Origin: a virus
Length of the DNA stretch: 64,000 nt
Direction: 5' to 3' (one strand)
Virus record (IMG/VR): IMGVR_UViG_3300024955_000001
Coordinates: 1-64,000 of that record
Below are positions 139 through 50,203 of the stretch, piece after piece (position 1 is the first letter of the stretch; each line of letters starts with the position of its first letter). The position numbers were made by a program, and so were the translations under genes. The notes beneath the pieces are model-generated. The model had not been told where the DNA came from and did no database searches. It worked only from the letters and a program-made list of their open reading frames with translations.

Positions 139-174
139 GGGTAGCTAGGTGGGTAGCTACACTCCTAGCTACCC
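139..174 (+). promoter_or_regulatory. GGGTAGCTA repeat cluster and potential stem-loop directly 5' of the integrase RBS
   Basis: GGGTAGCTA occurs at 139-147 and 151-159 (direct) and as TAGCTACCC at 166-174 (inverted). Positions 151-174 form a 9-bp stem with a 6-nt loop, followed by an A-run, AAGGA and ATG 191. Confidence 0.4.
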
Positions 175-190
175 AAAAAAAGGACCGCCG

Positions 191-7892: not shown

Positions 7893-10800
7893 TTACCCGT
7901 TCTCTCGTGCCATATCCCGCATCTGCTGGCGCAGCGCCTTGGGCGCCGTGTCTGCGATCCGGGCGGTGCGGTCCTTGCCCATTTCGCGCACGCGCTTCAT
8001 CACGTCCGGGATCTTCACCACGATGGGCTGGTCTGGGTTGTTGCGGTTCCAGGCCGCCAGGCGGTCGCGCACCCGCTGCAGGGCATCGTCATCCTTCTCA
8101 AAGACAGCCTGCGCCCACTGCGCCTTGATGTCATTGCTGGTCTGGATGTAGAAGCTCTTGGAGCGCTGCATGAAGGAGTTGGCCTCCTGCACCTCTGCGA
8201 CGGGCTTGGGCTGGAAGCCGATGGCCTTGGCAATCGCCTCGTCCAAGGTCGTGTCGATGACCTTGTAGCCCTTGGCGTCCTTGTAGATGCCGCTGGTCCC
8301 CATGTCGATGCCTTTGGCCAGGTTGCGCACCGCCGCTGGGGACACCTCCAGCGCCGCGCCGGCTACGTCGCCAGTCAGCAGCTTGCGCGCCCCAGTGAAG
8401 CCGCGCGCCACCAAGTCGCCCGCTGGGCCGGCCACCTCCAGCAGATCCCGCTCGCGGTTCTGCTTGGACAGCAGCAGGCCGGTACCGGGGATCAGGTTGC
8501 CCATGCCCAGGCGGCCCGACACGTCGATGGGGGCGCCAGGCAAGCCGGACACGCCCTGCTCCATGAAGTCGGCCAGCTCCTTGCCCACCACATCGCGCAG
8601 CGCCTGCTTGCGCCAGTGCTTGGTGCTGATGTTGTAGCCCATGAGCTGGCCGGCGCCGTCGATCAGATCCTCGGCGTCTTCCATGAACGGTAGGCCACCA
8701 GCACCACCCATCAGCAGCAGCATGGCCACTGCCCATCCCACAGCACGCTTGCCCTCGGGGCCTCCCTGTGTCCACATGCGGTGCATCAGCTCCAGATAGC
8801 TGACCGAATAGGTCTTGAAGGTGAACAGCGTTCCGCCGATGGTGCCGCGCGCCCACTTCGGCTTGTTGGCCTTGGAATACACGAACTGCGTTTCCTGCAC
8901 GGCGCGCTCGGCAAACTTCGCCGGATCGGCCATGCCCTGCTCCTTGGCGATGCGATAGGCGGCAATGAAGGTGCTGCGGCGGTTGAACTGCTCGGCCAGG
9001 GCGAAGGGCTGGCCCCATGCCACCTTGACGCGCTCCCAGTTGTTGGCCGCCGCAGCGCGGGCGTCGCCCAGCTTGGTACCGTCACCGGTGCGCAGCGAAC
9101 CCGCGCCCCGGGCCTGCGCCATCAGCTGGTGGATTTCCTGGGGCGACACGATGCCCTCGGCCTCGGCCGTTTGCAGCGCCTTGGCCAGGTCTGGCTCGTA
9201 GCCGCTGCGGCGGGTCATGTCGCGCACTGCAGCAGCCAGGTGCGAGGCGGCGCTGCGCATGCCCCCGAACTGGGACAGCCAGGGCATGGTGATCTGGAAT
9301 GGCTGGGTCATGTTGACCATGGCCGAAGCTACAGAGCCGCCCAGGTATTGCGCGAACAACATGCCGCGTACGGCTTGGCCTTCCTCCTGGGGATCTTGGA
9401 TGTAACTGCGCAGGCCCATGGCCACGTCGCGCAGCTCGCCCTGCTCCTTCGGGATGCCCTCGATGGCGGTTTCCAGCGTGCCCGCGTTCAGCCCCCCGGC
9501 CGCCAGGCGGGCATTGGAGTACACGAAGCTGGCCAGCACCCGGCCCACGTCCTCGCTGTATCCGCTGATGCCCTTGCGGTGGATCAGGCGCTTGAGCGCG
9601 CTGTGGTTGTTCTTGGCCAGCTGCAGGTAGGCCTGGAATGCCTTGTCCTTCGGGTCCGTGCCCTCACCGCTCAGGCCCAGCATTTGGCCGAAGTGCTCAA
9701 GGCTTTCCGGGGTGATGCCCTGGAACAGCTTGAATGCCTCGTCGCTCATGGTGCCCTGGGTGACTGTCGCGCCAGGGAATTCCTTCTCCATGGCGGCCTT
9801 CATCTTGTTGGACTCGTACATCGACTCAAACATGCCGAAATACTCGCGCGTGCCGTCCTTGCCCACCACGTCCACGGTGTAGCGGCCGAAGCGCGACAGC
9901 GGCGCGTAGCCGGCCTCCATCAGCGCCCGGGCGCGCTCGTAGCTCTTCACCACGGCGTTGTTCAGGCTCAGGATGCGGTCGGCCTGGTCGGGGGACTCGC
10001 GGGCTTCGGCCTGCAGCGTGTCCGTGATGAGCACCATCGCGTCTTCCACGGTGGCCTGGGCCAGGACCGCCTCGCGCAGATCGGCATAGCCGGCGCCCAT
10101 GGCGCGCAGCATGTCGGCACGTGCGGTCATGTCCAGCGAGCGATCAATCGCGGCCCGCGCTTCCTGGTACAGGCTCACCTGCTGGGCGTTCAGGCTGAAC
10201 AAATCTTTCAGCTCTTTTTCACTCCAGATCACGCCCGGCTTGAGGATAGTGCTATCAAATTTGTTATTGATGATGGTGTTGTACTGATCCACCGGCAGGC
10301 CGCGCCACGCCTTGAGCATCTGCTCCTGGATCTTGCCGGTGCGCAGCAGGATCTGCGCCTTCTCATCAGGCGTGGTGTTGCGGTACTTCGCATTCAGGGC
10401 CTCGGTGGTCACGGGCGTGCCGTCCACATCGCGCGCCCACAGCAGCGTGCCCTCAAACAATGGCTTGGCCACAGCCTGGTTGTCGGCAGCGGTGATGGGC
10501 TTTTTCTTGAGGTCGGCCAGCGTCTCCACCCGGGGCAGCAGGCGCGGCGCGCGGTCGGCGGCGTCGTTGCCCAGCATGGACACGTCATCAATGAAACGCT
10601 GCGCCGCTTCGTACACCGGCTTGAACACCGGCGAGCGCTCGGCCAGGTTGCGCATGGTGCCCACGGTCTTGTCCCACAGAGACACCTTGCCAGGATGGGT
10701 CAGCGTCTGGTGGATCTGCGCCAGTGCACTGTCTTTCAGGTCGGCCGTGCTGGAACGGCTGAAACGGATATCCGGGTCAGCGCTGCCAGCGTCGCTTGCA

Positions 10801-13800
10801 CGGCTCATCACCGGCTGGCCACCACGCGGCCCCCCGCCCGGCCCGCCGCGCACCACCCAGCCGCGTGCCGGCAGGATGTACGCTTGAATGATGTCGTTGT
10901 CCGTCAGGCGCAGACTTTGGAAGCCTGGCACGTGCTGGCGCAGGAAGTTGCGAATGGCGGAAATCGCCCGTTGCACAAAGGGCAGTTGGGGGGTCTTCTC
11001 GGCCATTTCTGCCAGAACTTCCTCAGCCGCTTCGCGCACGCTCAGGCTGTTCACCCCGCGCAGGCCGTATTCCCGCATCTTGGCGGCAACCTCGGCTTTG
11101 CGCATGGTAGCAAGCTGGTTCAGCACCTGATCCAGGTCGCGGCCGAACTTGCCGCGCAGCCCGTGGTGGCCCAGCACCTCGTGGTACAGCACGCGCGCCG
11201 CGTCGTTGGGCGTGTTCAGGCGAGAGGCCATCAGGTAAGCCTTGCCACGGTAGTAGAAGCCCTCTGGCGCTCCGCGCGCACCGCCGCTGCGCTGGCGCAG
11301 GTCAGCATTTCGTGCAGCTTCGGGGATTCGCTGGTCCTGCATGTCGAAGGCCACCACCACCTCGGGCGCATTCGGGCCCCATGCGGCGCGGATGGCGTCC
11401 ACTGTGCCGGACACTGAGGCGACAGCTTGGCGACGCGCGGCGTCGGAGTACACCGATGGTTGATCCATGGCCGCGAGGTAGGAGGCCATATCAAAATCGT
11501 CAGCCTGCGCAACACCAGCGGGAGCCTCGCGTCGGAATGCAGGCGCATCGCCCGCAGTTCCATCGCCCGCCTCGGATTCCTCGGGGGTCGTCGGGGCGGC
11601 ACTTTGGGCCTTGCCTTCCAGCAGGCCCACCAGCTCACGCAGGCGCTCACGCTTGGCGGTCAGCTCCCCAGCCTTGGGGAACGTCTGGTTCAGCTGTTGG
11701 CGCAGCGCGGGCAGTTCTGCCTTCGCCCGCGCAAGCTGGCGCTCCAGGTAGTCAGTGCTGCTGTTGGCCAGGCGGCCAATGTCATCGAACAGGTCTGTGA
11801 CCAGGTTGCGCACGTTGGCCGGCACAACGGACTGGTTGACCGCGAACGAATTCAATCCCCGGCTGGTCACGGTGGCGCCGTCAGCGTCCACCAGCGACAC
11901 CGAGGCGTCAATCTGGCCGCCACCCTTGCCGGTTTCGCGGGCCTGCGCGTCCAGCACCAGGTCATAGCCCAGCATGCTGCCCACGGTCGCGGTGCGCGAG
12001 TCGCCGGGCTGAATGCCCTTGGTCAGCTCGTTGAACTTGGCGGCCAGCTCACGCGCAGCAACGGTGTGCTGGGCGATCAGGCGCCCGTCAATGGTCACAT
12101 CGAACAAGGATGAGTCACCAAGGGCAGCGCCAATCGCGGTGTCGATGCCGTCCTTGTTGGTCAGGCGCGCACCATCCACAGAGATAGAGTACCGGGCCGT
12201 AGGCTTGCCGCCCTGCTGCTGCTCGATGGCCTCGTTCACGGCGGTCATCGCATCGCGCAGGTTGTCGTACTCCTTGCCCTCGATGGTCACACGGCGCTCT
12301 GCCTTGCGGGCGTCGGCCGCCTCCATGGCGGCGTTGGCCTTTTCCTTCTTGGCGCGCTCGTCGGCAATGCGGCCGGGATTGCGCTCGATGGCGCGCTCCG
12401 CGCTCTCCACGGCATCCTCGATACCGAACATGCGGCGGCGGAATGCACGCTCCTGCAGCTCCAGCGTGGTGATCTCGGATTCCGTCTTGACGCGCTCCAG
12501 CAGCAGGGGGTTGCCGGATGCCAGGGCCGCCATTTCGGCCATGCCCACGGCTTCCTCGTCATCGAACTCCATGGAAAACGCGCCGTCGTACTTGCGAATG
12601 CCGTTGATGGTGCGCAGCTTGGTCGCGTTCAAGTCCCACATCTTGGCGTCCACCGTGCGCTCGGTGGCGTAGGCCAGGATTTCCACCTCAAAGTCCGCGC
12701 GGAACATCGGGTTGGGCTTTTCAGCCGTTGGGGGCGTGCTGAACAGGTTACCTTGTCGGATCACCCGGCCCTCGCGCTGCTCGATGTCGCTGGGCTTCCA
12801 GGTCACGTCAACGTGGTGCAGAGCCACGGCACGCTGCTGCACGTTGGTACCTGCCCCCATGCGCGGGGTGGAGCCAATCAGGACACGCACCTTGCCGCCG
12901 TTCACGCTGTCAAAGAGCGCGGCTTTCTGCTCATCGTTGTTGGCCTCCTGCACGAAGCGGATCTCGTTGGCCGGGATGCCAGTGGCGATCAGGTTGTCCT
13001 TGATCTGCTGGTAGGCGCTCCAGGGCGAGGTCTGCGCCTGGCGCAGCTCTGCAATCTCCCGGGGGTCGTAGCGGTCCAGGGCTTCCTGGGCTTCGTCAAA
13101 AGCCTCCTGGTCATCAGCGCGCAGCGCGGCGTCGCGCTTGGCCACCAAGTCGTCATAGGCCTTGATGATGGCGTCATCGCCCTTGGACTTCGGCACGGAA
13201 CGGTCGAGGAACACCAGCTGCGTGCCCTGGTCGGCATCCCACTTGTCGTAGATGCGCTTGATGTTCTCGCTCACTACCTGCAGCTTCCCGCCTTCCTCGG
13301 TGCTGGTGCTGCGAGGGTCAACGGCGCGGATGTCCAGGGACAGCTTGCGCGCCCGGTCCATCAGGCGCAGGCGCTCGGCGTTGCGCTCATAGGGGTCTTC
13401 GATGCCGTCCAGGCCATCGAAGCCTTCCATCACATCTTTGAGGCCCTGCTCCTGGGCGGGGGTGGGCTTGATCGCCACCAGGTTGCGGTCTTTGCCCCCT
13501 GCCACCTTCGGCACTGGGAACTCGCGGCCTGGATTGTCCTCGGCGTAGAAGCGCTTGATGTCATCCAGGCTCACCGCATCGGTGACTTGGTAATACAAGT
13601 CCATCAGCGAACGCATGTTCGACCAGGTGCGGCCCAAGCGCGTGACCTGCTTGAGGCGGCCCGATTCGGTAGGCTCAAACGCTGGCGTTGCCTCCACGAA
13701 CTGCGCGCGGAAGGCATCGAAGTGGGACAGGCCCATGTCATCCAGCGAGTCGGCTGCCAGGTAGCGCAGCATCGTGAACATTTCCACGGCGCTGTTGCTG

Positions 13801-16800
13801 ATGGGCGTGCCCGTCAGGAAGGTGACGCTGCCCGTAGGCTGCTCGCGCAGCACGCGCACCTTGTTGTAAAGGTCGTTGGCCTTGCGCGATCCGGTCTTGT
13901 CGCCCATGCCACGCACACCCGTCAGGTTGGACGAGTAGTAGAGGTTCTTGAACTCGTGGGCTTCGTCCACGGTCAGGTCATCCACGCCCAGCTGCTCAAA
14001 GGTCAGCAGGCGGTCGCGCACGCCCTCTGCCAGGCGATCCATGCGGGCCTGAATCTTCTCGGCCAGGCGCTCGGCCTCCTTCACATTGAAGGGCTTGCGG
14101 CGCCCGTTGTCGGTACCGTCCTCGCGGGCCTGCTCCCAGGCGTCCTCGATGGCTGCCTGTGCCTGAGCCATTTCCAGCTCCAGGTAGCGGCTTTCCGTCT
14201 CCGGCGCAATGCCGATGAAGCCGAAGGACGAATGGGGCACGATCACGATGTCCCAGTCGCCCGTGGCGATCTTGCCGAACAGGCGGCGGCGGCGCTTGGC
14301 CTCGAAATCCTTCTTGCCAGCGGCCAGCACCTTGGCGCCAGGGTACAGGCGGTACACATCGGCCGCCCACTGCTCCACCAGGTGGTTGGGCACAGCCACC
14401 ATGGGCTTGCGGGACAGGCCCATGCGGCGGCGCTCCATCGCGCGGGCGATGGCCGTGAAGGTCTTGCCGGCCCCCACGGCATGATCGACCAGCATGAAGC
14501 GCTCGTAGATGCCGCGCCAGATGGCATTCATTTGGTGGCGGCGCATCTTGAGGATGGCGTCCGGCACCTTACCGGGCAGCTGCAGGTGCTGGCCGTTGAA
14601 CTGGCGCACCACGCGGGTGTTGAACTTCTCGTTGAACACGTCCACCAGGCGCTGGCGGCGCTCGCCGTTCTTGAAAACCCAGTCGCCAAACTCGGCCTCG
14701 ATCTCGCGCGCCTTGAGCCCGGCCAGGGCGGTGCGCTCCTTGTCGATGTAGGTGTTGCCGTCCGCGTCGCGGGCGGTGACGGTCACGGCCTTGCTGTTCA
14801 GGATGCGGGTGATGATGTAGTCAGCTGGCGCACCCTCGCTGCTCCAGTTGGACATGCTGGTGCGCTCGGCGCCATCCACGCTGACACTGAAACTGTTGGT
14901 CAGGGCCGAAAAGCTCACCCGCGCCTTGCCCCCCACCAGATGGCGCACGAAATCTGCATAGATCTCAGGGGGCACCCAGGTGGCGCCCATGGTCACGGCC
15001 ACGTTCTCTGCGGTCCAGTCTGCGGGAATGATCTTTTCCAACGCCTCGGCGTTCTTGGTCATGCCAGCGGCGCGCGCTGCGTTCAGCTTGCGCTTGACCA
15101 TGCCCGACAGGTAGGCGTCGGCCGTTTCCCACTGCCCCGTTTCAGGGTCTTTGAACACCAGCGGGTCGGCACCCTGCTGCAGCTGCTCGCCGGCCTGCTC
15201 TGGGCTGACGCCCAGCAGGTTGGCGATGCGCTCCATGTCCACGCGCCCAGATTCCGCCAGGGTGATTGCCAGGGCATCCGATGGAGTGGCGGCCTTGGTC
15301 GCTGGCTCATATTTGGGCACCACGCGCTCACGCAGGATAGGCGCTGGCGTGGCCTTCTCCTTCTGCGCCTCCAGCCCGGAGCGCGCGGCCTGCTCTGCAG
15401 TGCGCTCGGGTTGATAGTCCACCTCCAGCGCGGCTATCAGGCCGCCGTCCGGCATGGTCATCGCCAACTTCATGTTGGTGGAGCGCCCCACCGGTCCGTT
15501 GGCCTTCACGAATGCCTCGTAGGCAGCGGCCAGGCTCTTGCGGTTGCCCTCCATCACGGCGGGCACGGCGTCGGCGGTTTCCAGCACCAGCTGGCGTTTG
15601 AGCAGATCGCGCAGGCCGACCAGCCCGTTCAGGCGCTTCATGCCCAGCTTGCCAAGGCGCAGCTTTTCGGGCACGTCCTCGGGCTTGGCGTATACCTTGC
15701 GCTCGTACAGGTTCTTGCGCGTGGCCTCGCCCTTGGCGTTGGTCGCCTTGACGTTCTTGCCCTGCTCGTCCAGCACGGGCTCCAGAGAGTACCACTGGCC
15801 CTCCGCGTTCTGGCTCAGGGACTCGTGCCATGGGCTGTTCTCGTCAACATCCTGGTAGGCAAACTCGAAATCGCCCTCGGGTGTTTCGCGCTCAATCACG
15901 CGCTGCAGCTTCCCGTCAGGGGTAGCCTTGATGTGGCCGGCTTCCTCGTTGGCCACGGCAATGCGCAGCGCATCGCTCATGGACTTATGGCGGGATGCAG
16001 TGGCGTCCAGCACATCCTGCTGGAAGTTCTGGATGCCCTCGGGCAGGCGCTGCACTGCCTCGCTCAGTAGCTTGCCCAGCTCGGCCGGGTTGTCCAGGCG
16101 CACGGTAATGTCGGCACCATGCTGCATGGAGCCGGAGCGCTCCATGACGCCCAGGACGTTCGCCGGGTTCTCCGCGAAATAGGCGTTCACGTTCATGGGC
16201 TCGCCGCCCAGCGGATCGGGCACCTTGACCGTTTCGACCCAGGACGGCACCAGCGCGGCGGCGGCGGCGTCCGCGTCCTTCTTGTTGGCCTTGAGCTTGT
16301 TGTATTCCGTGATCGCGGCTTGCATCGCAGCCTGCTCGCCCGCATCCATTTTCTGGAAGATCAGGATGTCAGTCACCACCTCCGTTCGGGCGTTCTCCTT
16401 GAATGCCGTATCTGGCAGGCGGATTGCGGCCACCAGGCGCGCCTGTGCGGCCAGCGCCAAGCGGCTGCTCTTGTCCTGCGCGTCCATCAGGAAGCGCGAT
16501 ACCACCATGGCCTGAATGCCGCCAGGGCGCAGCGCATCCATCCCGGCCCGGAAAAACTGGTTGTGGATCGACACGCCCTGCAGCTCGGGCTTGAACTGGA
16601 AGCGCAGAGACTCGCTGCCGAACGGCGGGTTGCCGATGTTCAGCATGAAAGCGTTGTCGGCCACCGGCACCTTCTGGAAGCCGGAATGCAGGACCGTCGC
16701 CTGCGGATACAGGGCCTGCCCGATGCGCGCGGTCAGGCTGTCGTATTCGACACCCACGAACCGATTGGGCATGTCCTTTGGCGCCAGGCCCAGGAAGTTG

Positions 16801-19800
16801 CCGGAGCCCATCGAGGACTCCAGCACGAGTCCTCCACGGTAGCCCAGGCGGCGCACCATGTCCCACATGGCCGACACCACCGTCTGCGAGGTGTAGTGCG
16901 CGTTGCGGGTCGAACGACGCGCGGCGGTGTATTCCTCTTTGGTCAGCAGCTCGCGCAGTTCCTCACCGCGCGCCGTCCACTTGTCCTTGAACTGGCCGGA
17001 TGCGGGGTCGGGGAAAGCGTTGGCCAGGCCGCCCCAGCCCACATAGCGGGCCAGCATTGCCTGTTCTTCCGGTGTGGCGCGACGATTGGCCGCCTCGATG
17101 GCCTTGAGGGCGCGGATCGCGGCCAGGTTGTCATTGAACTTCTGAACCTCGCCACCCTTGCCCAGGCCCACCTCGTCGGTGATCTGGAAGTCGGCGGCGG
17201 GGATGTTAGGGGCGCTGGCCTCGCCCCCAGGGACAGCTACGCGCCCATCTGCTTGCGGTACTGGCTCTCCAGTTGCGCGAGTTCCTTGCGCTCCCACGGC
17301 TCCAGCTCGGCCTCGGGCTCGGGTTTTAGGAGCACGTACTGGCTCAGGGCCACTTCCTCCGCTTCGTGCTGGCGAAAGCCCTGCTCCATCAGCGACAGCA
17401 CTTCCTGCTGCGCCTGCTTGCCCGCTGTCTGCAGCGCCTGCTCCAGCTCCCCGCTCGCCTTCAGCGCGGCTACCTTCTTGGGCAGCCACTGCGTCCAGTG
17501 CTTGCGGGCTCTCGCTTCGTACAGTTGTGCGCTCATCGCTGGGGTTCTCCTGCTGTGCATTATCGGCCTCGGCCTGGTCGGCAGCAACAACCGCCTCGTG
17601 TTGTTCAATCTCGGCCTTCGTCTCCACGTCGATGACCGCGCGCTTGGTATCCGCGCCCGTCTTGCCCCCCGCCATTGCGATGTAGGCGCCCTGCAGGTGA
17701 TCCAGCGTCAGCGCATCGGCCGCGTCGTCGCCCAGGTTTGCGCGGATCTGATCCAAGGCGAACTTGGCCGAATCCTTGAACTTGTGGTATCCCAGGCGGA
17801 ATGCGGCATCCAGCACGCGTGTGAGCACTGGCAGCAGCTTTTGCTCCTGCTCGGGCACGATGTTCATGCGGGTGCCCTTGCCAAGGATGTCGCCCAGGTC
17901 GGCCAGGGCGTTCATCAGATCGGCCTGCGCGCGCACCTGATCGGCGCTGGGCTTCTTGGCAGTAGCAGGGGCCTTATTTGCTACTGAATTGGTAGCTACT
18001 GGAGCTTCTTTGGTGCTGGTACCGGCCTGATTCTCATCAGAAACATTGATGGCTTTTTCTGCGGCTGGCGCTGGGCTGGCAGCAGGCTTGGCCGCCTCGC
18101 TCTCGGCCGCCGTCATGAACTCGGGTTTCAGCTCGCCGCGCGACACCTGCATGCCCTGGCGCGTGGGGCGCAGGGACACGGTTTCCTCGATGCGCACGCC
18201 GCCCTGGGCGTACCAGCGCACGCCGTTCTTGTCCTGGCGGATCATCACGCCGTCAGCGCGGCGGCCGACGATGGTGTTTCCGTCCTTGTCCGCTTCTGAA
18301 TTAATAGCTGCTGGAGCAATAACGGCGCCGGTATTGGGCTGTTCCTTCTCTTTGTCCTGGCGGGTTACGGCGGCGGGGGCTGCGGTGGGCACAGCTTCGC
18401 CCGTAGGTGCCGTGTTGGCGGGGAGAAAAGAACGTTCGCCATTCGCCTTCTCGGCGGTCACAACGCCATCGCGCTCCATGCGATCCATCAGCGCATTGAC
18501 TTCGCCAAAGCCGATGCCCAGCGCAGCCTGAATAGCAGGGCGATTCACAGCGCCGGCGCTGCGCACCAACTCCACAGCCTTTGTGTAGGTCGCATCGTCC
18601 TTAGCGCCGGGCTCCATCGCAACCGCCAGCTTGCGCTGCACATCGCGGTTCAGGTCAGCCCACGCTGCGCGGTGGACGTTCTTGCGCACGATGGGCTTGA
18701 GATCCGCGCGCTGGGCCAGGGCCTGGCGTTCGGCCGTGGGCATGCGCGTCCAAGCATCGCCAGTGCTGGCTACGCGCTGAGCAGGGCCTTCTGCTTGCGG
18801 CGCAGCTTGCGCGCTTGGCGCTGGCGCCGTTTGCGCTCCAGGGTTCGCAGTCGGGGCGCCATCGGTCAGGCCTGCAGCGGCTGCTTGCTGCGCGCCATTC
18901 GCGCCTGGGCGTCCTTGAGCATCTGGTGCTCCACGTGCGACTGCTGGCGCTGCTCCGACTTGCGACGGTTGCGCGCTACCTTGCTGGGCTTGGGCGGCTT
19001 GAGGGCCATTGCGGTTTCCTTCTGTGGTTGCGGGAATGGTCAGATCAGCCGGCACTGGACCAGCGTCTTCGGTGAGGGAGGCAAAAGCGGCATCGGCGCG
19101 CTCTGCGCCGGGCACGCTGGCGCGCTGCTCTGCATCCAGCTCGGCCTGCAGCTCCTGCTGCTCACGCAGCGCACGGCGGCGGCCCAGCTCCTGGGCCAGT
19201 TGCATGCGGACCTCGCGCGACTGAGCGCCGCGGAAGGTGTTGGACAACTGGGCATCGCTCCAGCTCTCCATGGGCGAGCCCGGCGAAATTTCGCCAGTTT
19301 CCTGGTTTACGCCTTGCTGCGTGAGCGCTGGCTGCTCTTGTTTTTGATTGCCTTGGGCAGTTTTTTTGCCTTGCTTTTGCGCTACCTCGGCAGCCTGGGC
19401 CAGCGCAGCGGCCTGCTGCACTTGGTCTGAGGCGCCGGTATCGACAGCCAGCGCGGCACTGGCCGACAGTGGGCCGGCAGCAGGGTCCAAGCCCATGGCC
19501 ACGGAGCGCGGCACGGTCGCACCGGTGGACTGGTAAATCTCATCGTCAGGGCTTTGCACGGCGCGCGAGGCATCCATGGCAGCCTGGCGCTGCTCGGCGG
19601 CCTGGGCCTGCTGCTGCGCCAGCGCTGCCGCGCCATCGGGAGGCGCGGTCTGGGGCACGTTGGGATCGCCTTGCTCCTGCTGCTGCAGCGCCGCCAGTTG
19701 GGCGGCAAATGCCTGCTGGATACGCTCCATGCCGAGGTTGGGCGGCGCGGCGCCGGCGTCAGTGGGTGCGGCACCAGGTTGCTCGGAAGGCGACGCACCT

Positions 19801-20798
19801 GGTTCCGCTTTCGGCTGCTTGAAGCCGTGATAGCCGGAAGCTGCGCCACCCATGGCGCCGCCCGACAGCACGCCCATGACCGCTGCGGAATCCACATCCG
19901 TCAGCCAGTCCTTGCCAAGCGCCACGTTCTGGAAGATTTGCTCGGCCACGGACTGCGGCAGCTCTTCCAGGAAACCCTCGGAGATCGCGCCCTCAATCAC
20001 GCGGCGCGGAATGCTCTTGGCAGCCGCTTGCTGCACCAGAGGATTGACGGCGGCGGTAGCGGCATCGTCAGCGTTCTGCTTCGCCATGCCCTTGGTGCCC
20101 TGGGCCAGCATGGTTTCGGCGTCACCGATACCCAACTTGTTGGCCACGCGGCCGCCCAGCACGCCGAAGCCCGCCGTGGCCACGCCGGTTGCCGCTGCGA
20201 GCGCGGCCTGGGTGGGGGTCAGCAGCCCATCGGGAGTTTCCTGGCGGATCTGCTCGGCTGCGGAACCAGCTGCGGTGATGCCTTCGCCGGCCGCGCCCGC
20301 CAATGCAGCACCAGCGGCGCCCATCTGGCCCAGCTTTGTCGCGGCCATGAGTCCTCGCGCAGCGACGCCCCCAGCGCCCATGCTGGGCAACGACTCACCA
20401 ACGGCCGTCGCAATGAGGCTGGGGTTCTGAACGGCTGTAACGGCCTTGTCCACGATGCCATTGGCATCCTGAAACTTGCGTTGCGCCTCCTTGGTAGCGT
20501 CGGAGTGCCAGTCGTTGGCGATTTCCTTGGCCTGCTTGGGGCGAAAGCCCACAGAGCCACCCTCGTTCTCCAGGAACTTGCCCACCTCGCCGCCCGTGGG
20601 AATGTCGGCAATACCAACCAGGGCCTCGGGCACGCCAATGGCGCCCTTGACAGCTGTGGCAGCAACGTCCTTGATGGTGCCGCTCAGCGTACGCTTCGGC
20701 GAATCCGCTGCACCATCGAACTGGTCAAAGTAGTTCTTTCCTTTGCCACCCGGGCCGGCAGTTGAGGGGTCGAATTGATCAAAGAAGTTGGAGCTCAT
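7893..20798 (-). CDS. Giant (4,301-codon) polyvalent virion/ejection protein with N6-adenine methyltransferase, SNF2/DEAD-like helicase, zincin-like and PLxRFG modules (DarB-like class)
   Basis: Uninterrupted ORF. Motifs in order from the N-terminus:
- N-terminal FDQFD x2 and Gly-zipper region.
- FtsK-gamma-like winged helix, 18423-18599.
- MTase motif IV NPPF, 16620-16631 (LNIGNPPFG).
- Walker A AVGAGKT, about 14460-14480.
- DEAH, 13956-13967.
- QREGRVIRQGN, 12747-12779.
- YHEVLGHH, 11163-11183.
- PLSRFG, 9885-9902.
- C-terminal hydrophobic segments. Confidence 0.85.
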   Translation of the reverse strand: MSSNFFDQFDPSTAGPGGKGKNYFDQFDGAADSPKRTLSGTIKDVAATAVKGAIGVPEALVGIADIPTGGEVGKFLENEGGSVGFRPKQAKEIANDWHSDATKEAQRKFQDANGIVDKAVTAVQNPSLIATAVGESLPSMGAGGVAARGLMAATKLGQMGAAGAALAGAAGEGITAAGSAAEQIRQETPDGLLTPTQAALAAATGVATAGFGVLGGRVANKLGIGDAETMLAQGTKGMAKQNADDAATAAVNPLVQQAAAKSIPRRVIEGAISEGFLEELPQSVAEQIFQNVALGKDWLTDVDSAAVMGVLSGGAMGGAASGYHGFKQPKAEPGASPSEQPGAAPTDAGAAPPNLGMERIQQAFAAQLAALQQQEQGDPNVPQTAPPDGAAALAQQQAQAAEQRQAAMDASRAVQSPDDEIYQSTGATVPRSVAMGLDPAAGPLSASAALAVDTGASDQVQQAAALAQAAEVAQKQGKKTAQGNQKQEQPALTQQGVNQETGEISPGSPMESWSDAQLSNTFRGAQSREVRMQLAQELGRRRALREQQELQAELDAEQRASVPGAERADAAFASLTEDAGPVPADLTIPATTEGNRNGPQAAQAQQGSAQPSQVGAAPAVARGAPDAQGRPGANGAQQAAAAGLTDGAPTANPGAQTAPAPSAQAAPQAEGPAQRVASTGDAWTRMPTAERQALAQRADLKPIVRKNVHRAAWADLNRDVQRKLAVAMEPGAKDDATYTKAVELVRSAGAVNRPAIQAALGIGFGEVNALMDRMERDGVVTAEKANGERSFLPANTAPTGEAVPTAAPAAVTRQDKEKEQPNTGAVIAPAAINSEADKDGNTIVGRRADGVMIRQDKNGVRWYAQGGVRIEETVSLRPTRQGMQVSRGELKPEFMTAAESEAAKPAASPAPAAEKAINVSDENQAGTSTKEAPVATNSVANKAPATAKKPSADQVRAQADLMNALADLGDILGKGTRMNIVPEQEQKLLPVLTRVLDAAFRLGYHKFKDSAKFALDQIRANLGDDAADALTLDHLQGAYIAMAGGKTGADTKRAVIDVETKAEIEQHEAVVAADQAEADNAQQENPSDERTTVRSESPQALDAVAAQEGSRAEGERGAGAGAADSGQAGAAGSAVADGAGLSPARSGGSGPEPVRAPKTRARGRAGAVGAQGTRATGEPVPQADGRVAVPGGEASAPNIPAADFQITDEVGLGKGGEVQKFNDNLAAIRALKAIEAANRRATPEEQAMLARYVGWGGLANAFPDPASGQFKDKWTARGEELRELLTKEEYTAARRSTRNAHYTSQTVVSAMWDMVRRLGYRGGLVLESSMGSGNFLGLAPKDMPNRFVGVEYDSLTARIGQALYPQATVLHSGFQKVPVADNAFMLNIGNPPFGSESLRFQFKPELQGVSIHNQFFRAGMDALRPGGIQAMVVSRFLMDAQDKSSRLALAAQARLVAAIRLPDTAFKENARTEVVTDILIFQKMDAGEQAAMQAAITEYNKLKANKKDADAAAAALVPSWVETVKVPDPLGGEPMNVNAYFAENPANVLGVMERSGSMQHGADITVRLDNPAELGKLLSEAVQRLPEGIQNFQQDVLDATASRHKSMSDALRIAVANEEAGHIKATPDGKLQRVIERETPEGDFEFAYQDVDENSPWHESLSQNAEGQWYSLEPVLDEQGKNVKATNAKGEATRKNLYERKVYAKPEDVPEKLRLGKLGMKRLNGLVGLRDLLKRQLVLETADAVPAVMEGNRKSLAAAYEAFVKANGPVGRSTNMKLAMTMPDGGLIAALEVDYQPERTAEQAARSGLEAQKEKATPAPILRERVVPKYEPATKAATPSDALAITLAESGRVDMERIANLLGVSPEQAGEQLQQGADPLVFKDPETGQWETADAYLSGMVKRKLNAARAAGMTKNAEALEKIIPADWTAENVAVTMGATWVPPEIYADFVRHLVGGKARVSFSALTNSFSVSVDGAERTSMSNWSSEGAPADYIITRILNSKAVTVTARDADGNTYIDKERTALAGLKAREIEAEFGDWVFKNGERRQRLVDVFNEKFNTRVVRQFNGQHLQLPGKVPDAILKMRRHQMNAIWRGIYERFMLVDHAVGAGKTFTAIARAMERRRMGLSRKPMVAVPNHLVEQWAADVYRLYPGAKVLAAGKKDFEAKRRRRLFGKIATGDWDIVIVPHSSFGFIGIAPETESRYLELEMAQAQAAIEDAWEQAREDGTDNGRRKPFNVKEAERLAEKIQARMDRLAEGVRDRLLTFEQLGVDDLTVDEAHEFKNLYYSSNLTGVRGMGDKTGSRKANDLYNKVRVLREQPTGSVTFLTGTPISNSAVEMFTMLRYLAADSLDDMGLSHFDAFRAQFVEATPAFEPTESGRLKQVTRLGRTWSNMRSLMDLYYQVTDAVSLDDIKRFYAEDNPGREFPVPKVAGGKDRNLVAIKPTPAQEQGLKDVMEGFDGLDGIEDPYERNAERLRLMDRARKLSLDIRAVDPRSTSTEEGGKLQVVSENIKRIYDKWDADQGTQLVFLDRSVPKSKGDDAIIKAYDDLVAKRDAALRADDQEAFDEAQEALDRYDPREIAELRQAQTSPWSAYQQIKDNLIATGIPANEIRFVQEANNDEQKAALFDSVNGGKVRVLIGSTPRMGAGTNVQQRAVALHHVDVTWKPSDIEQREGRVIRQGNLFSTPPTAEKPNPMFRADFEVEILAYATERTVDAKMWDLNATKLRTINGIRKYDGAFSMEFDDEEAVGMAEMAALASGNPLLLERVKTESEITTLELQERAFRRRMFGIEDAVESAERAIERNPGRIADERAKKEKANAAMEAADARKAERRVTIEGKEYDNLRDAMTAVNEAIEQQQGGKPTARYSISVDGARLTNKDGIDTAIGAALGDSSLFDVTIDGRLIAQHTVAARELAAKFNELTKGIQPGDSRTATVGSMLGYDLVLDAQARETGKGGGQIDASVSLVDADGATVTSRGLNSFAVNQSVVPANVRNLVTDLFDDIGRLANSSTDYLERQLARAKAELPALRQQLNQTFPKAGELTAKRERLRELVGLLEGKAQSAAPTTPEESEAGDGTAGDAPAFRREAPAGVAQADDFDMASYLAAMDQPSVYSDAARRQAVASVSGTVDAIRAAWGPNAPEVVVAFDMQDQRIPEAARNADLRQRSGGARGAPEGFYYRGKAYLMASRLNTPNDAARVLYHEVLGHHGLRGKFGRDLDQVLNQLATMRKAEVAAKMREYGLRGVNSLSVREAAEEVLAEMAEKTPQLPFVQRAISAIRNFLRQHVPGFQSLRLTDNDIIQAYILPARGWVVRGGPGGGPRGGQPVMSRASDAGSADPDIRFSRSSTADLKDSALAQIHQTLTHPGKVSLWDKTVGTMRNLAERSPVFKPVYEAAQRFIDDVSMLGNDAADRAPRLLPRVETLADLKKKPITAADNQAVAKPLFEGTLLWARDVDGTPVTTEALNAKYRNTTPDEKAQILLRTGKIQEQMLKAWRGLPVDQYNTIINNKFDSTILKPGVIWSEKELKDLFSLNAQQVSLYQEARAAIDRSLDMTARADMLRAMGAGYADLREAVLAQATVEDAMVLITDTLQAEARESPDQADRILSLNNAVVKSYERARALMEAGYAPLSRFGRYTVDVVGKDGTREYFGMFESMYESNKMKAAMEKEFPGATVTQGTMSDEAFKLFQGITPESLEHFGQMLGLSGEGTDPKDKAFQAYLQLAKNNHSALKRLIHRKGISGYSEDVGRVLASFVYSNARLAAGGLNAGTLETAIEGIPKEQGELRDVAMGLRSYIQDPQEEGQAVRGMLFAQYLGGSVASAMVNMTQPFQITMPWLSQFGGMRSAASHLAAAVRDMTRRSGYEPDLAKALQTAEAEGIVSPQEIHQLMAQARGAGSLRTGDGTKLGDARAAAANNWERVKVAWGQPFALAEQFNRRSTFIAAYRIAKEQGMADPAKFAERAVQETQFVYSKANKPKWARGTIGGTLFTFKTYSVSYLELMHRMWTQGGPEGKRAVGWAVAMLLLMGGAGGLPFMEDAEDLIDGAGQLMGYNISTKHWRKQALRDVVGKELADFMEQGVSGLPGAPIDVSGRLGMGNLIPGTGLLLSKQNRERDLLEVAGPAGDLVARGFTGARKLLTGDVAGAALEVSPAAVRNLAKGIDMGTSGIYKDAKGYKVIDTTLDEAIAKAIGFQPKPVAEVQEANSFMQRSKSFYIQTSNDIKAQWAQAVFEKDDDALQRVRDRLAAWNRNNPDQPIVVKIPDVMKRVREMGKDRTARIADTAPKALRQQMRDMARENG
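17237..17536 (-). CDS. Embedded 99-codon ORF in the +1 frame of the giant gene
   Basis: ATG 17536 with AGGAG at 17547-17551; TAG at 17237-17239. Product MSAQLYEARARKHWTQWLPKKVAALKASGELEQALQTAGKQAQQEVLSLMEQGFRQHEAEEVALSQYVLLKPEPEAELEPWERKELAQLESQYRKQMGA. Hand-counted GC3 is about 86% in this frame versus about 37% in the giant frame over the same 300 nt. Confidence 0.6.
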   Translation of the reverse strand: MSAQLYEARARKHWTQWLPKKVAALKASGELEQALQTAGKQAQQEVLSLMEQGFRQHEAEEVALSQYVLLKPEPEAELEPWERKELAQLESQYRKQMGA

Positions 20799-20834
20799 CC
20801 ACCCACTGTCCAGCAGCGTGAGGAATGGGCAAAA

Positions 20835-20846
20835 CCCTATGCCGGG
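20835..20846 (-). repeat. Late-module motif copy 3 (coding strand CCCGGCATAGGG)
   Basis: Lies 36 nt upstream of the giant-gene ATG 20798. Confidence 0.6.
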
Positions 20847-20927
20847 CGATGAACGATTGGAGCTTTCGAATCTGCAGCGCCACTCTGATTGCGTACCCTG
20901 CTACATTCCTCACAGGAGGGAGAATCC

Positions 20928-21731
20928 ATGGAAGCCACTCAGGACAATCAGCCATCAACGCCCCTGCGCTTTGCCCGCCACATCGTTGGAATGATGATCT
21001 TGGCGCTGGCTTCACCCTACATCTGGTACAGCTCAGATAGCGTTGCAACCTGGGCCTCAACGTGGGTCACACCGCTGCTGATCGCGGGCGTAGCATTTGG
21101 GCTGTACCTACTGTTCTTCACCAAGCGTGCCAAGGAAGCATGGCCCGGTCGATTCTTTATGCTGGCCTGGGTGATGCTGGCCCTTGCGGTGGCCGGACCC
21201 TATCTAGAGAAGTTCAACCGGGAGCGAGCACAGTCAGCCGCATCGAATTCGCTATCAACACCGCCACAAACAGCAGTTGCACAGCCTCCCCTGAATCACT
21301 TTGACCAGTTCGACACAGCGAGTGCATCATCAAGGCAAGCATATGTGTCTCGTGTCAATGACCTGCGCCTCGCTGGCAAAAATGGATCCATACCAATATT
21401 GGATATACAAGCGCCTTCGGACGCTGACAAAGCTCTCAAGCCATGGTCGCCCCAGGATGTTGCTGCCGTGGAAAACACTCAAACGTGGTGGGTGGACGGC
21501 GAGGCGGTTTGGATGCACATCATGAATCGCTCCATCGCAAAGATCGACGCACTGCAATTTACATACGCGGCAGGAAATTGCGGTGCAGCACCGCCCTCTG
21601 ATCAGGCTTCCTACTTCGTGCGTCTGCAGCGCTCAGTAGAGCCTGGAGCTGAGGCTCTAGTGCGTTTCGCTGCAGTTAGTGAGTTCAAACCTGCGAATGG
21701 ATGTCTGACTATTGTGAAGGTGCTCGGCTAG
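20928..21731 (+). CDS. Antisense moron: 3-TM membrane protein with a ~170-aa predicted periplasmic C-terminal domain
   Basis: ORF 20889..21731 trimmed to ATG 20928 (GGAGGGAG RBS). It is the only plus-strand gene inside the late region and has visibly lower GC. TM helices IVGMMILALASPYIWY, WVTPLLIAGVAFGLYLLFF and FFMLAWVMLALAVAGPYL. Carries NHFDQFD at 21294-21314. Confidence 0.8.
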   Translation: MEATQDNQPSTPLRFARHIVGMMILALASPYIWYSSDSVATWASTWVTPLLIAGVAFGLYLLFFTKRAKEAWPGRFFMLAWVMLALAVAGPYLEKFNRERAQSAASNSLSTPPQTAVAQPPLNHFDQFDTASASSRQAYVSRVNDLRLAGKNGSIPILDIQAPSDADKALKPWSPQDVAAVENTQTWWVDGEAVWMHIMNRSIAKIDALQFTYAAGNCGAAPPSDQASYFVRLQRSVEPGAEALVRFAAVSEFKPANGCLTIVKVLG

Positions 21732-23683
21732 CCAAGCACCTTCTTGGCGGCCCCAGGGCCGAACTTTGCGTCAAATTCTGCAGCCTTCTTCGGGTCTGAT
21801 TTCAGAGCAGAAATGTGGCCCGCCTGCGGCGCAGGCCATTGCCCCCCCTGCCCCGCATCCACACGCTCAACCGCACCCGTCTGGGTGTTGTAGCGCATCA
21901 CACTACCCTCGGTAGTGGACCCATCAGCATTCTTCGTGGTCGGCGTCACCTGGAGCTTCCATGGCGATTCCGTCTTCTTGCCGGACAGGTCGCGGATCTG
22001 CTGTGCGATAGCGGCCTTTTCCTCGGGAGTCTTCGCAGCGTCGTAGCGCTCGCTCAGTTTCTCTTGGCGGTAACCCTGGCGAATGTCAAAGCCACGTGCC
22101 TCCGCCTCGGTTGCGGCGCGCTTTTCCTCGACGGCCGCTCGGCGGTTGTCGATCTGAAAACCGCGTGCCGAACGCTGGTCAGCACCGGACTGCTGCATGC
22201 CTTCTCGCTGGAGCGCAGAGTTCTCGCGCATGGCGGCCAGGTCCATGCCGGGCTGGGCCAGCTGCAGCGCCTGGTCATTTTTGAGCGCTGCTTGAAAGGC
22301 CAGGTTGTCAGGGCTGATCGCTGCGGCACGTGCGCCAATGCGCGACGGATCGTTGGTGATCGAGCTGGCGGACACTTGCGCGCTGCGAAGCGCGTTGCGT
22401 GCAGCCCAGTCATTGGTGGAGTTGCGCACCACAGGGGCCGTCACCTGGGCAGTAGGAGCCGGTGAGGCCAAGCCAGGCGCGAAGCCAACCGAACGGGGCG
22501 CAGAGAGCGCTTCCGCTGCCGCGTTGTTCTGCGCAGTAATTGGGCCGGTACTGAGAGGCTGTGCGGCGGGCGTGGCGGTGGGCTCCCCTACCGGTGCTGT
22601 GGCCGCAGTAGGAGGCTGCACCTGTGCAGGAGAGGCCGAAGGCATGGGCGGGGAAGCCGGCTTGACAGTAGCGGCGGCGGCTGGCGCCTGTGCCATGGAC
22701 GTGCCTGCAGCCCCAAAGAACTGCTTGCCGGCATCTACGACCGTAGGCGCAACAGCACGGAGCGCGCCGCCCACCACGTCATCAACAACAGCCGGCGCGT
22801 AGGCCAGTGCAGCGCGTGCGGTTTCCCCAGCGGCTGCGCCATACCGCCCTTGCTTGGCAAGATCACCGATGGCCTTGCCGGACTCGTTGAACACGGCGCG
22901 CGTGCCAGGCATGAAGCCAGCGGCGGCTGGTGCGGGGGTGGGTGTAATCTGGCTGGTGGTAGCCGCCTGCGGTGGGCTGGGAGGCATCGCTGGGCGAGTG
23001 GCAGCCGACTCCTGCGCGCCGCGCACGTACATGGCCGTCTGGTTGGCCATGCGCTGCTTTTCTTCATCCTGCACCAGCCCGCCATTGGCAAAGAACTGGC
23101 GCGGCTCTTCCGGCTGGGCTTGGGGCGCAAAGCCGCGCACCGGCTTGTGGGTTGCATCACGCATCACAGTCAGCACAGACTCACCCAGCGCCTGCACCTG
23201 TTCTGGTGGCAGCTCGAATTCCCCATTGCTCAGGCGCACCGGCACCGATTCCCCCTGCTCTTCCATCGCGCTATCGCCCACCTCGCCAAGCTCTTCCAGA
23301 GCCTCCGGGCCAATGGCCTGCGTGCTATCGGCGGGCATGATGAAGGTACCAGGGCGCTTTGCGGTTTCAATGGAATCACTGGTGCCAGTGCCGGGTCCAC
23401 GGATCAGGCCCCCCGCCTTGAACCCGCGCGGCTTGACCGTACCACCATCTTTCAGACCTGCAGCCTTCTCGCGGCGCGCCATTGCGCCCATGCCCATGTA
23501 GTCGCTCACGGCCGGAGCGGGCGCCGGTGCTGGAGCGGCCTGCTGCTTCTGGGCAGCTTCCTGCGCGGCTTGGGCGCGGTAAGCGGCAACGCGCGCATTG
23601 CGCTCTTCGTCCATGCCAAAGGCACGCTTGAGGCCTTGTACCAAGCCGCCGTCTGCAAATTTTTGGGGTTGAAAGCCTCGCAT
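21728..23683 (-). CDS. Internal virion/ejection protein (Ala/Pro/Gln-rich)
   Basis: ORF 21728..23737 trimmed to ATG 23683 (AAAGGAG RBS). Repeated GGL[VI] motifs and GPGTGTSDSI..LSNGEFELP. Confidence 0.7.
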   Translation of the reverse strand: MRGFQPQKFADGGLVQGLKRAFGMDEERNARVAAYRAQAAQEAAQKQQAAPAPAPAPAVSDYMGMGAMARREKAAGLKDGGTVKPRGFKAGGLIRGPGTGTSDSIETAKRPGTFIMPADSTQAIGPEALEELGEVGDSAMEEQGESVPVRLSNGEFELPPEQVQALGESVLTVMRDATHKPVRGFAPQAQPEEPRQFFANGGLVQDEEKQRMANQTAMYVRGAQESAATRPAMPPSPPQAATTSQITPTPAPAAAGFMPGTRAVFNESGKAIGDLAKQGRYGAAAGETARAALAYAPAVVDDVVGGALRAVAPTVVDAGKQFFGAAGTSMAQAPAAAATVKPASPPMPSASPAQVQPPTAATAPVGEPTATPAAQPLSTGPITAQNNAAAEALSAPRSVGFAPGLASPAPTAQVTAPVVRNSTNDWAARNALRSAQVSASSITNDPSRIGARAAAISPDNLAFQAALKNDQALQLAQPGMDLAAMRENSALQREGMQQSGADQRSARGFQIDNRRAAVEEKRAATEAEARGFDIRQGYRQEKLSERYDAAKTPEEKAAIAQQIRDLSGKKTESPWKLQVTPTTKNADGSTTEGSVMRYNTQTGAVERVDAGQGGQWPAPQAGHISALKSDPKKAAEFDAKFGPGAAKKVLG

Positions 23684-45301: not shown

Positions 45302-45552
45302 GGCACACCCCCATCGGACAGGGCATCTGCCTCCAGCTCGCGTTCGGCCAGGGCCACCACGTCACCGGCAATCTGACGGCGGTACCGCACGGTGGCCGTG
45401 AGCAGGTAGCGGCGCTGGGCGGGCGTGAGCGCCTGGGCATCGGGCAGCGCGGCGCGTGCTGCCATGTCCTTGGCGAAGCGCTTGGTACCGATGCCGGGCT
45501 TGAAGCAGCACGCGGCCAGAGCGCGGGCCAGGGTCTTCTCGTTCTCTGTCAC
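45295..45552 (-). CDS. Hypothetical protein
   Basis: ORF 45295..45600 trimmed to GTG 45552 (GTGA overlap, GGAAGGAG RBS). Confidence 0.55.
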   Translation of the reverse strand: MTENEKTLARALAACCFKPGIGTKRFAKDMAARAALPDAQALTPAQRRYLLTATVRYRRQIAGDVVALAERELEADALSDGGVPC

Positions 45553-50147: not shown

Positions 50148-50203
50148 CCCTTGAGAATAACACTTGTTGATTTAGGCATCAACCCTTGTTTTCAACATTT
50201 GTT
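50125..50203. promoter_or_regulatory. OR-like operator cluster: four TCAAC-N3-TGTT sites
   Basis: Sites at 50125-50136, 50159-50170 (reverse orientation), 50179-50190 and 50192-50203. Confidence 0.6.
50154..50182 (-). promoter_or_regulatory. PR-like promoter (TTGATG-17-TATTCT) giving an essentially leaderless cro mRNA
   Basis: -35 at 50177-50182 and -10 at 50154-50159. Only 6 nt separate the -10 from ATG 50147. Confidence 0.5.

Follow-up and report, generated by a model that had tools for sequence, protein, structure and literature searches.

The window analysed here, 64,000 nucleotides (nt) of viral DNA (positions 1 to 64,000 of the IMG/VR virus record IMGVR_UViG_3300024955_000001), contains a small plus-strand gene at 20928-21731 that lies antisense beside the gene of a giant virion protein. 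The small gene encodes a predicted membrane protein with one copy of a short peptide, FDQFD, that is present twice at the N-terminus of the giant. An initial annotation, made from the letters alone, had noticed this correspondence and suggested that in the lysogen the small protein holds, in the periplasm, a decoy of the motif with which an ejection protein begins. The elements concerned are the following (AF2, AlphaFold2; pLDDT, predicted local distance difference test score; aa, amino acids).

7893-20798, minus strand: giant polyvalent internal/ejection protein, 4301 aa, with an FtsK-gamma winged helix-turn-helix, an SNF2-type helicase and a PLxRFG C-terminal domain
7932-9911, minus strand: PLxRFG ("tail-700") domain of the giant, aa 3630-4289 (NCBIfam NF032893, E = 1.9e-238, 793 bits against a cut-off of 100)
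20349-20690, minus strand: conserved helical domain after the cassette (IGVPEALVGIADIPTGG.VGKFLENEGG...), the anchor for fetching related loci
20691-20798, minus strand: hypervariable cassette (aa 1-36) at the N-terminus of the giant, in which the motif is present twice
20769-20789, minus strand: cassette motif copy 1, N-F-F-D-Q-F-D
20715-20735, minus strand: cassette motif copy 2, N-Y-F-D-Q-F-D, which includes a 16-nt inverted match to 21298-21313
20928-21731, plus strand: motif-display protein gene, 267 aa, from the ATG at 20928 to the stop at 21731 (three-helix membrane anchor, then a disordered linker that contains NHFDQFD, then a beta-rich C-terminal domain in which two Cys are conserved)
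20985-21206, plus strand: three predicted transmembrane (TM) helices, aa 20-35, 47-64 and 76-93, the anchor module of display family A
21207-21323, plus strand: Pro/Ala/Gln-rich linker, aa 94-132, predicted to be disordered (AF2 pLDDT <50 at residues 100-131)
21294-21314, plus strand: displayed motif N-H-F-D-Q-F-D, within the linker
21324-21728, plus strand: C-terminal beta-rich domain, aa 133-267 (AF2 pLDDT ~85)

The start of the giant protein reads MSSNFFDQFD...KNYFDQFD, with its motif copies at the positions first given for them. In six-frame translation the whole window contains FDQFD exactly three times, versus 0.0016 occurrences expected from composition: at residues 6-10 and 24-28 of the giant and at residues 125-129 of the small protein. 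The 16-nt inverted match between the two genes is exact and unique. The caution that came with it, that one recurring 16-mer in a window of this size is not very improbable, was well placed, as 19 distinct 16-mers recur in the window versus ~5 in shuffles. The weight originally given to this DNA identity finds no support; it is a by-product of the shared peptide, and the motif codons differ synonymously in other loci.

The giant fits the PLxRFG giant virion proteins of F116-like phages, with NF032893 at the C-terminus and genes for the head closure protein Hc3, the portal and the major head protein upstream; in these phages its homologues bear the annotation structural or internal virion protein. 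Its gene has DNA similarity to Pseudomonas phages F116, H66, LKA5 and phiC725A. An NPPF sequence (read as an N6-methyltransferase signature) and an HExxH sequence were recognized by eye in the translation and have no family match. Fetching by the conserved domain that follows the cassette yielded 98 F116-like loci. In nearly all of these, the 33-46 residues preceding the domain comprise two copies of one short aromatic/acidic motif, which varies between phages and falls into at least 14 classes; examples are NFFDQFD, NAFDEFD, KPWEEF, GPWNQY, DWSQF, TFSYEDA, SEIDDILKGAP and PFDGxLD, and also NPFSDPNYG, FDPSTA, DWWKSGA, DWEKG, TWGENDK, WLDQxST, YLTDEEIGF and DLFDEL. Identity to the window is 17-35% over the cassette versus 73-87% over the following 114 aa. 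The classes are not host-taxon specific, and at least seven of them are present in Comamonadaceae prophages alone. The proposed check of whether FDQFD is conserved in related giants gave more than plain conservation: the motif is widespread, and the cassettes at this N-terminus are interchangeable, FDQFD being just one class among 14 or more. When residues 1-200 of the giant are modelled in AF2, the cassette comes out as coil that includes one-turn helices (pLDDT 57-64); its two copies are unpaired, at low confidence. The annotated start of F116 p59 (L129/L197, NC_006552; ..STASNWWREAVGGVRWRDEEEGRG) lacks the doubled KPWEEF cassette of the close relatives H66 and LKA5; F116 may have another cassette here, or the difference may stem from a frameshift or a wrongly placed start.

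FDQFD itself extends beyond this group. Viral contigs scanned for N[FY]FDQFD gave at least 120 stretches. Among the matches listed, ~100 belong to large proteins (550 to >3000 aa) in which the motif lies at residues 5-8, and the usual layout is two or three copies 13-30 residues apart, then polar, Pro- or Ala-rich sequence. The carriers include P22 gp16-type ejection proteins (Proteus phage vB_BPM-V3) and LPD-domain polyvalent proteins; other FDQFD carriers contain LPD1, LPD5, LPD38 or MuF_C domains. Judged by its distribution, FDQFD appears to be a short linear motif that tips injected proteins of unrelated bodies. No phage-related mention of FDQFD was found in the set of papers searched. A set of P22 gp16 homologues (L016, L018, L025, L037, L057, L063, L065, L098; PQ539422 12822-15038) bears a 245-aa N-terminal extension in which NFFDQFD occupies residues 3-9 and recurs at ~113-121, following a "VLIPTVSDDGRI" domain; their close relative in Proteus phage Brookers is without the extension.

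The small protein has no significant match in Pfam, PHROGs, NCBIfam or PADLOC, and a tblastn search against GenBank phages returned none. Three hydrophobic helices are predicted to cross the membrane, as the initial annotation had it, and its use of the positive-inside rule agrees with the Lys+Arg counts of 52 family members (N-terminus 2.06, loop 1 0.40, loop 2 3.37, after TM3 1.85), which favour an N-in, C-out orientation. The two Cys noted in the C-terminal domain, Cys218 and Cys259, are invariant among full-length homologues. An AF2 model of the protein, built with five sequences, has three anchor helices, a disordered motif-bearing linker (100-131) and a confident beta-rich region (133-267), for which Foldseek against the PDB found no match at E <= 0.001. 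The length and sequence of the linker differ among homologues, of which P0002 and P0003 retain N[FY]FDQFD; their phages likewise have FDQFD giants. A profile search of 1.84 billion representatives recovered 197 clusters with one or both modules (107 at E <1e-10). Anchor and beta domain occur as independent modules: most anchor proteins are 100-160 aa long and consist of the anchor and a short tail, and the beta domain is also found behind DnaJ+TM, DUF2569 and DUF2628 anchors, with the motif standing before or after it. The window protein conforms to the anchor consensus ..ARHxVGM..ALANP..W..TW..PL..FGLY.LFF..RAK.AWP..FF.LAWVLL. One relative, P0019, has NYFDQFD and the beta domain together with TM segments and a DnaJ (J) domain on the cytoplasmic side, and a DnaJ-like open reading frame (ORF) lies near the giant gene in L046 (1714-2268, minus strand), in the slot described below; the J-domain relatives hint at a coupling to DnaK. 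A third module, HY..IYAAHPDADA..S..F..W.., is located between scaffold and tail in long display proteins of both families (L138 1739-2434, minus; L165 1459-2124, minus; L171 1201-1899, plus; P0006, P0007, P0034, P0060, P0065, P0081).

Display genes cluster around the gene of a 651-aa-like virion protein and use two unrelated, envelope-targeted scaffolds. Family A is the three-TM anchor of the window, with phmmer matches in L137, L151, L156, L161, L166 and L183. Family B is a ~95-aa domain with a Sec-type signal peptide (e.g. MHKTILAFFLALPVVVQA/AN) and four Cys, unrelated to family A; its L111 member is related to NCBIfam NF041602, the VF_A0006 four-cysteine family, but at 43.6 bits (E = 1.9e-11) stays under the curated cut-off of 65, and the window protein has no NF041602 match. 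Both scaffolds carry tails with one to four motifs of the cassette vocabulary. In 17 of the 20 loci in which both proteins are readable (any class), the tail motif matches the cassette of the phage's own giant, and besides FDQFD at least ten other peptide types are copied by relatives. Representative pairs are listed here, with tails that run to the stop codon marked as such.

L111, L046, L017, L034, L001, L004 and the window: cassette of FDQFD type; tail of FDQFD type
L137: cassette GPWNQY / GPWKRY; tail SPWNKYQGQ-stop
L161: cassette NPFSDPNYG; tail DNPFKDPNYGKE
L161, L232: cassette NPFSDPNYG; tail NPF[KR]DPNYGKE
L151: cassette IEFDPTSA / FAFDPDTA; tail FHFDPSTARKV
L156: cassette IKPFDGSLDGE; tail LKPFHGKLDGE-stop
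L183: cassette LKPFDGTLDGE; tail LKPFTGKLDGE-stop
L157: cassette QPFSGALDGE; tail RPFSGKLDHE
L165: cassette NDWWKSGATP; tail KEWWKRGSTP
L171: cassette SWLDKGSTLV; tail KWLDGVSTVV
L200 and relatives (P. aeruginosa): cassette KPWEEF; tail KKPWEEY

Some tails add a second motif of a foreign class: EWWKS in L183, PFTGQLD in L165 and SEVERFLSDAP in L156. Of three additional homologues looked up prospectively, P0007 is cognate (tail NPFRDPNYGKE, giant NPFSDPAYG / NPFSNPDYGKE), and P0006, which has no clear tail motif and a giant of the FDPxTA type, is not; the giant of the third, P0009, lies off the contig, and this locus is outside the cognate count.

The pairing was assessed by summing, over 18 loci, the best ungapped BLOSUM62 score of tail against cassette. 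The sum for own pairs is 725, versus 447±42 for permuted pairs (maximum 658), and 0 of 100,000 permutations attained it. When only one FDQFD locus was retained, the sum is 475 versus 287±33, and once more 0 of 100,000 attained it. The own-pair score of the window ranks first of the 18. In a separate vocabulary test, 14 regular expressions derived from the giants alone were run on 156 display-family representatives. They gave 102 matches, versus 7.4±2.7 in shuffled sequences, with at least one match in 74 proteins and at least two classes in 18; the motif rate is 2.74 per 1000 aa in display families versus 0.045 in the other ORFs of the loci. A longest-common-substring test of ORFs beside the giant gene was too strict and returned no shared exact motif; the matches emerged on reading the tails and on ungapped BLOSUM scoring. 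Codons of identical tail and cassette residues agree only ~40% of the time, and exact DNA runs between tail and cassette span 3-11 nt in 12 other loci. Since the synonymous codons differ, selection acts on the peptide rather than through a recent DNA copy. In LKA5 and L001 the cognate genes are at least 2.7 kb apart. The loci thus exhibit mimicry of the ejection-protein tip, specificity for the phage's own class, selection at the peptide level and extracytoplasmic targeting signals. The suggested co-occurrence of such morons with their giants is borne out in the form of tails that follow the phage's own cassette, on two scaffolds, and the idea of a periplasm-facing copy of the N-terminal motif is supported, one of these scaffolds having a cleavable signal peptide.

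Family B is also present in cultured Pseudomonas phages. In LKA5 (L231, NC_073675.1) a family-B gene at 45458-45811, complement, encodes 118 aa with the tail KKPWEEYQN; it occupies an "intergenic" gap from gp56 to gp57 for which the record lists only predicted promoters and terminators. Further copies are found in phiC725A, F1Pa, E220, JBD90 and Atpa001. The gene is unannotated in LKA5, phiC725A, E220 and F1Pa, and the JBD90 record is without any annotation. Five of 14 KPWEEF-type P. aeruginosa loci have the family-B gene. IMG genome 2913042868 (L199, L201) contains two F116-like prophages, both KPWEEF, with a display gene in neither; as a single anecdote, this fits exclusion.

At the DNA level, the display gene and its surroundings contain the following further elements.

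20833-20846, strand unassigned: conserved box, AACCCTATGCCGGG on the plus strand and CCCGGCATAGGGTT on the minus strand, which precedes the start codon of the giant by ~35-50 nt
20897-20909, plus strand: candidate promoter/operator box CCTGCTACATTCC, directly upstream of the ribosome-binding site
20915-20922, plus strand: Shine-Dalgarno sequence GGAGGGAG, 5 nt ahead of the ATG
21728-23683, minus strand: 651-aa virion-module protein, which starts MRGFQP and contains GPGTGTSD; it converges on the display gene with a 4-nt overlap
149-1468, plus strand: integrase (PHROG 1, E = 2.9e-51)
50217-50975, plus strand: CI/LexA-type repressor (PHROG 4, E = 4.5e-25)

The strong ribosome-binding site first reported for the small gene is thus in place, and its CAGGAGG is unchanged across an upstream alignment of four homologous loci. 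The box CCTGCTACATTCC is kept in the window, L001 and L007, while the remaining spacer is not conserved. No terminator was found at the display gene, which overlaps the convergent gene by the 4 nt already mentioned. Its low guanine-plus-cytosine (GC) content was also correctly described: GC is 0.553, and GC at third codon positions (GC3) is 0.57 versus ~0.8 in the neighbours. The statement that it is the only plus-strand gene within ~40 kb holds approximately, as read from a crude GC3 map. In its deviant composition and its presence or absence among close relatives, the gene is moron-like, and in 20 of 21 cases, by a tally of listed strands, such accessory genes are antisense.

The window encodes a terminase, a P22-type portal, a major head protein and the head closure protein Hc3, and on gene content and the DNA similarity of its giant gene it is a temperate podophage of the F116 (Hollowayvirus) type, temperate because it has both an integrase and a CI/LexA-type repressor. 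The repressor shares strand and low GC with the display gene; the kilobase 50001-51000 (GC 0.57), the second low-GC kilobase of the window, contains it. The nearest homologue of the small protein is from Alicycliphilus denitrificans, and the host is for this reason probably a member of the Comamonadaceae.

The giant gene and the 651-aa gene bound a "slot" that houses the display gene. The same slot is occupied by display genes in L027, L111, L120, L137, L151, L156, L161 and L183; in many relatives nothing occupies it. The site is an accessory-gene hot spot with varied contents: other cargo (L133/L157 3072-3395, minus; L233 2467-2930, minus; L150/L180/L162; L163 2738-3607, minus) includes HicAB plus KilA-N, a small two-gene pair, secreted proteins of DUF4124-like type (QFSDEDFSPP occurs in one of them) and a ClpP/SppA-like protein. 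The 651-aa protein and its homologues (L004, L133-L225) begin with M-[RYHQF]-G-F-[QKH]-[PKA], followed by ..[FY]A[DN]GG.V.. and then GPGTGTSD; this N-terminus is conserved, not hypervariable. The MxGF[QKH]P start of the 651-aa-like (669-aa-like) protein was considered as a second mimicked motif and dropped, with 0 matches in the 156 display representatives. Upstream of the giant start, the box in the giant-strand form CCGGCATAGGG is found in L004, L135, L137, L151, L156, L159 and L183, with or without a slot gene; it could be a translation or late-transcript element.

Taken together, these results place gene 20928-21731 in a modular, previously undescribed "motif-display" family of prophages. 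Since two unrelated export or anchor devices bear the same tails, the tails match the phage's own cassette and the genes are moron-like, the tails must act outside the cytoplasm and in a class-specific manner. The N-terminus of the giant would be extracytoplasmic only during ejection; thus, interference with the ejection of superinfecting relatives is the simplest mechanism. We consider superinfection exclusion, through short-motif mimicry of the ejection-protein tip, the best explanation and a reasonably probable one. In this mechanism the three-helix anchor would sit in the inner membrane with its N-terminus inside, exposing to the periplasm the disordered linker with NHFDQFD and then a disulfide-bonded beta domain. 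The prophage would express the display gene. When a related phage ejects its internal proteins, the cassette of the giant would have to bind a class-specific partner in the inner membrane or close to it, and the tethered copy of the motif would compete for this partner or co-assemble with the incoming cassette. The DNA-delivery conduit would be left incomplete, and the superinfecting genome would be excluded. Expression in the lysogen, exclusion itself and the partner are, in this scheme, what we infer from the patterns described above.

Giants might escape by swapping cassettes, and display proteins might answer with arrays of their own and foreign motif classes; the hypervariability of the cassettes and the multi-motif make-up of the tails resemble the opposing moves of an arms race. 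A wider proposal, to which we give about an even chance, is that of a combinatorial repertoire, in which the cassette is an exchangeable two-copy "address" peptide that genome delivery requires, prophage arrays shown in the periplasm on interchangeable scaffolds exclude phages of the same address, this exclusion drives an arms race of cassette swaps, and like-binds-like capture possibly operates in place of competition for a host receptor. Because FDQFD is on three unrelated bodies and cassettes swap freely, the partner should not be a pocket in the same protein; because matching is class-specific, it should not be a single common host site. Candidates for its role are self-association of the motif, several host hubs and a phage partner that is co-transferred.

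Several observations weigh against exclusion by motif mimicry. Three of the 20 loci are non-cognate: L138 and L166/L007 have only foreign classes, and L235 has no clear motif. About half of the display representatives match none of the 14 regular expressions; some of these are fragments, and some may carry classes that were not defined. A simple sigma-70 scan of the 129-bp spacer recognized no promoter. At 1.85, the Lys/Arg count that follows TM3 makes the orientation of family A less secure when this family is considered by itself. Ejection of the giant is deduced from homology and annotation, and one partner serving at least 14 classes is hard to picture.

Other explanations accept the mimicry and assign it a different role. 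The display protein might be a superinfection sensor or trap, in which a self-associating motif captures the incoming cassette and either tethers it or signals, with lysis delay (like T4 RI), induction or abortive infection as the outcome. Homotypic binding would require no co-evolving partner, in keeping with a cassette that swaps freely beside a conserved domain, with FDQFD on three unrelated bodies and with two motif copies per giant; the conserved cytoplasmic anchor segments RFARHxVG and RAKxAWP, and the cytoplasmic DnaJ domain of relatives such as P0019, would suit signalling. However, self-association of these acidic, aromatic peptides is a supposition, AF2 gives no pairing of the two copies (at low confidence), and family B has no membrane or cytoplasmic part with which to signal, so that a sensor or trap seems unlikely to us. 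Slightly less likely still is a role of the same mimicry in the lytic cycle, sparing progeny and secondary kin a wasted ejection on infected cells or debris (compare T5 Llp). Periplasmic display and self specificity fit such a role equally well, but the gene is antisense to the late operon, which reads through it, and shares strand and low GC with the repressor; moreover, sieA of P22, whose position is equivalent, is a gene that the prophage expresses (PMC10883804). A shared host envelope pathway, such as a chaperone, protease or sorting factor that handles both proteins with no interference, could be imagined, as many classes are aromatic-x-x-aromatic or acidic and recall chaperone- or PDZ-binding peptides. 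It would impose one motif per host, however, and the at least seven classes of Comamonadaceae prophages, the match of tails to their own phage's cassette and the frequent presence of several classes in one tail make it improbable.

Two further explanations dispense with the periplasm or with the peptide. N-terminal targeting peptides for internal phage proteins exist, as in the capsid targeting sequence of T4, and the topology of family A is a prediction; the tail might therefore be cytoplasmic and its motif a capsid- or portal-targeting signal, making the protein a membrane-bound assembly factor or a competitor in morphogenesis. This is very improbable given that such tails also occur in family B, where a cleavable signal peptide and four Cys precede them, that the domain of the window protein has two invariant Cys, and that the positive-inside count favours C-out. 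Finally, the likeness might be due to chance or arise at the DNA level, by recent inverted duplication, gene conversion or an invertible switch between the 16-nt repeats, which form an exact inverted repeat 570 bp apart in a window where repeated 16-mers are not rare. Against this stand the expectation of 0.0016 for the peptide, the different synonymous codons and short exact runs of the 12 other loci, the distance between cognate pairs in LKA5 and L001, and the permutation result, all of which leave it scarcely credible; an invertible switch or gene conversion in particular is ruled out by the synonymous codon differences and the distant cognate genes.

If superinfection exclusion by motif mimicry is correct, a large group of temperate podophages would possess a specificity code for exclusion that can be read from sequence. 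Who excludes whom would be predictable, and could be re-programmed by swapping 7-11 residues. Two unannotated families would be added to prophage defence, one of them overlooked in the cultured P. aeruginosa phages LKA5, phiC725A, E220, F1Pa and JBD90, which is of relevance for predicting host range in phage therapy; its unannotated gene in the cultured phages LKA5 and phiC725A makes the idea testable. The hypervariable, duplicated N-terminal peptide would also be a functional element of giant and gp16-type ejection proteins, and a way into early podophage DNA delivery, which is poorly understood.

Among known systems, the closest in arrangement is SieA of P22, a three-TM inner-membrane protein whose gene adjoins ejection gene 16 on the opposite strand and which blocks DNA injection, with escape mutations in the ejection proteins gp16 and gp20 (PMC10883804). 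Like SieA, the display gene is a prophage accessory, antisense beside ejection-protein genes, with three predicted TM helices. Membership of the SieA family was considered and excluded: BLASTP of the window protein against P22 SieA gives E = 1.8, and the motif FxRYPxEAxxFNK is absent from its translation. SieA also lacks a tail or domain in the periplasm, the motif conserved in it is predicted to lie in the cytoplasm, and no ejection-protein peptide copy has been reported in it; SieA types are alike in specificity, whereas tails of the window type are class-specific. The N-terminal domains of the filamentous-phage protein g3p (pIII) occupy TolA, causing superinfection resistance and colicin tolerance. 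There, as proposed here, a piece of the phage's own entry protein in the periplasm blocks a step needed by the incoming protein; g3p, however, uses folded domains with a known host partner in a single-stranded DNA phage, and has no short linear motif, hypervariable classes or dedicated gene.

HK97 gp15 is a prophage-encoded, envelope-exposed protein that stops DNA entry via the tape-measure or ejection machinery. Ltp of the S. thermophilus phage TP-J34 likewise is a prophage protein exposed at the envelope that stops DNA entry via the tape-measure/ejection machinery (PMC3952083). Both have other folds and hosts and involve no motif mimicry. The cassette of the giant has a different analogue. 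Colicins have disordered N-terminal translocation domains whose TolB, TolA or TonB boxes, sometimes duplicated, capture periplasmic partners; the cassette too is a disordered N-terminus with short linear motifs, but colicins are bacteriocins, and the cassette has no sequence match to known boxes. Large polyvalent proteins of phages and conjugative elements (Pfam LPD families) were reportedly described by Iyer et al. in 2017; the giant resembles them in being multi-enzymatic and in its PLxRFG domain, and no description of a duplicated-motif N-terminal cassette or of mimicry was found in the literature for polyvalent/PLxRFG proteins. In the HXS system, a periplasmic effector with short repeats stops phage DNA entry (PMC13128918). 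HXS is host-encoded and radical-SAM matured, with proposed electrostatic DNA binding and no mimicry of phage peptides. A literature search for the cassette, the two display families and the mimicry found no description of them. Exclusion at the DNA-entry step is thus already known from these systems, and what appears to be new is a logic of exclusion that can be read in peptides.

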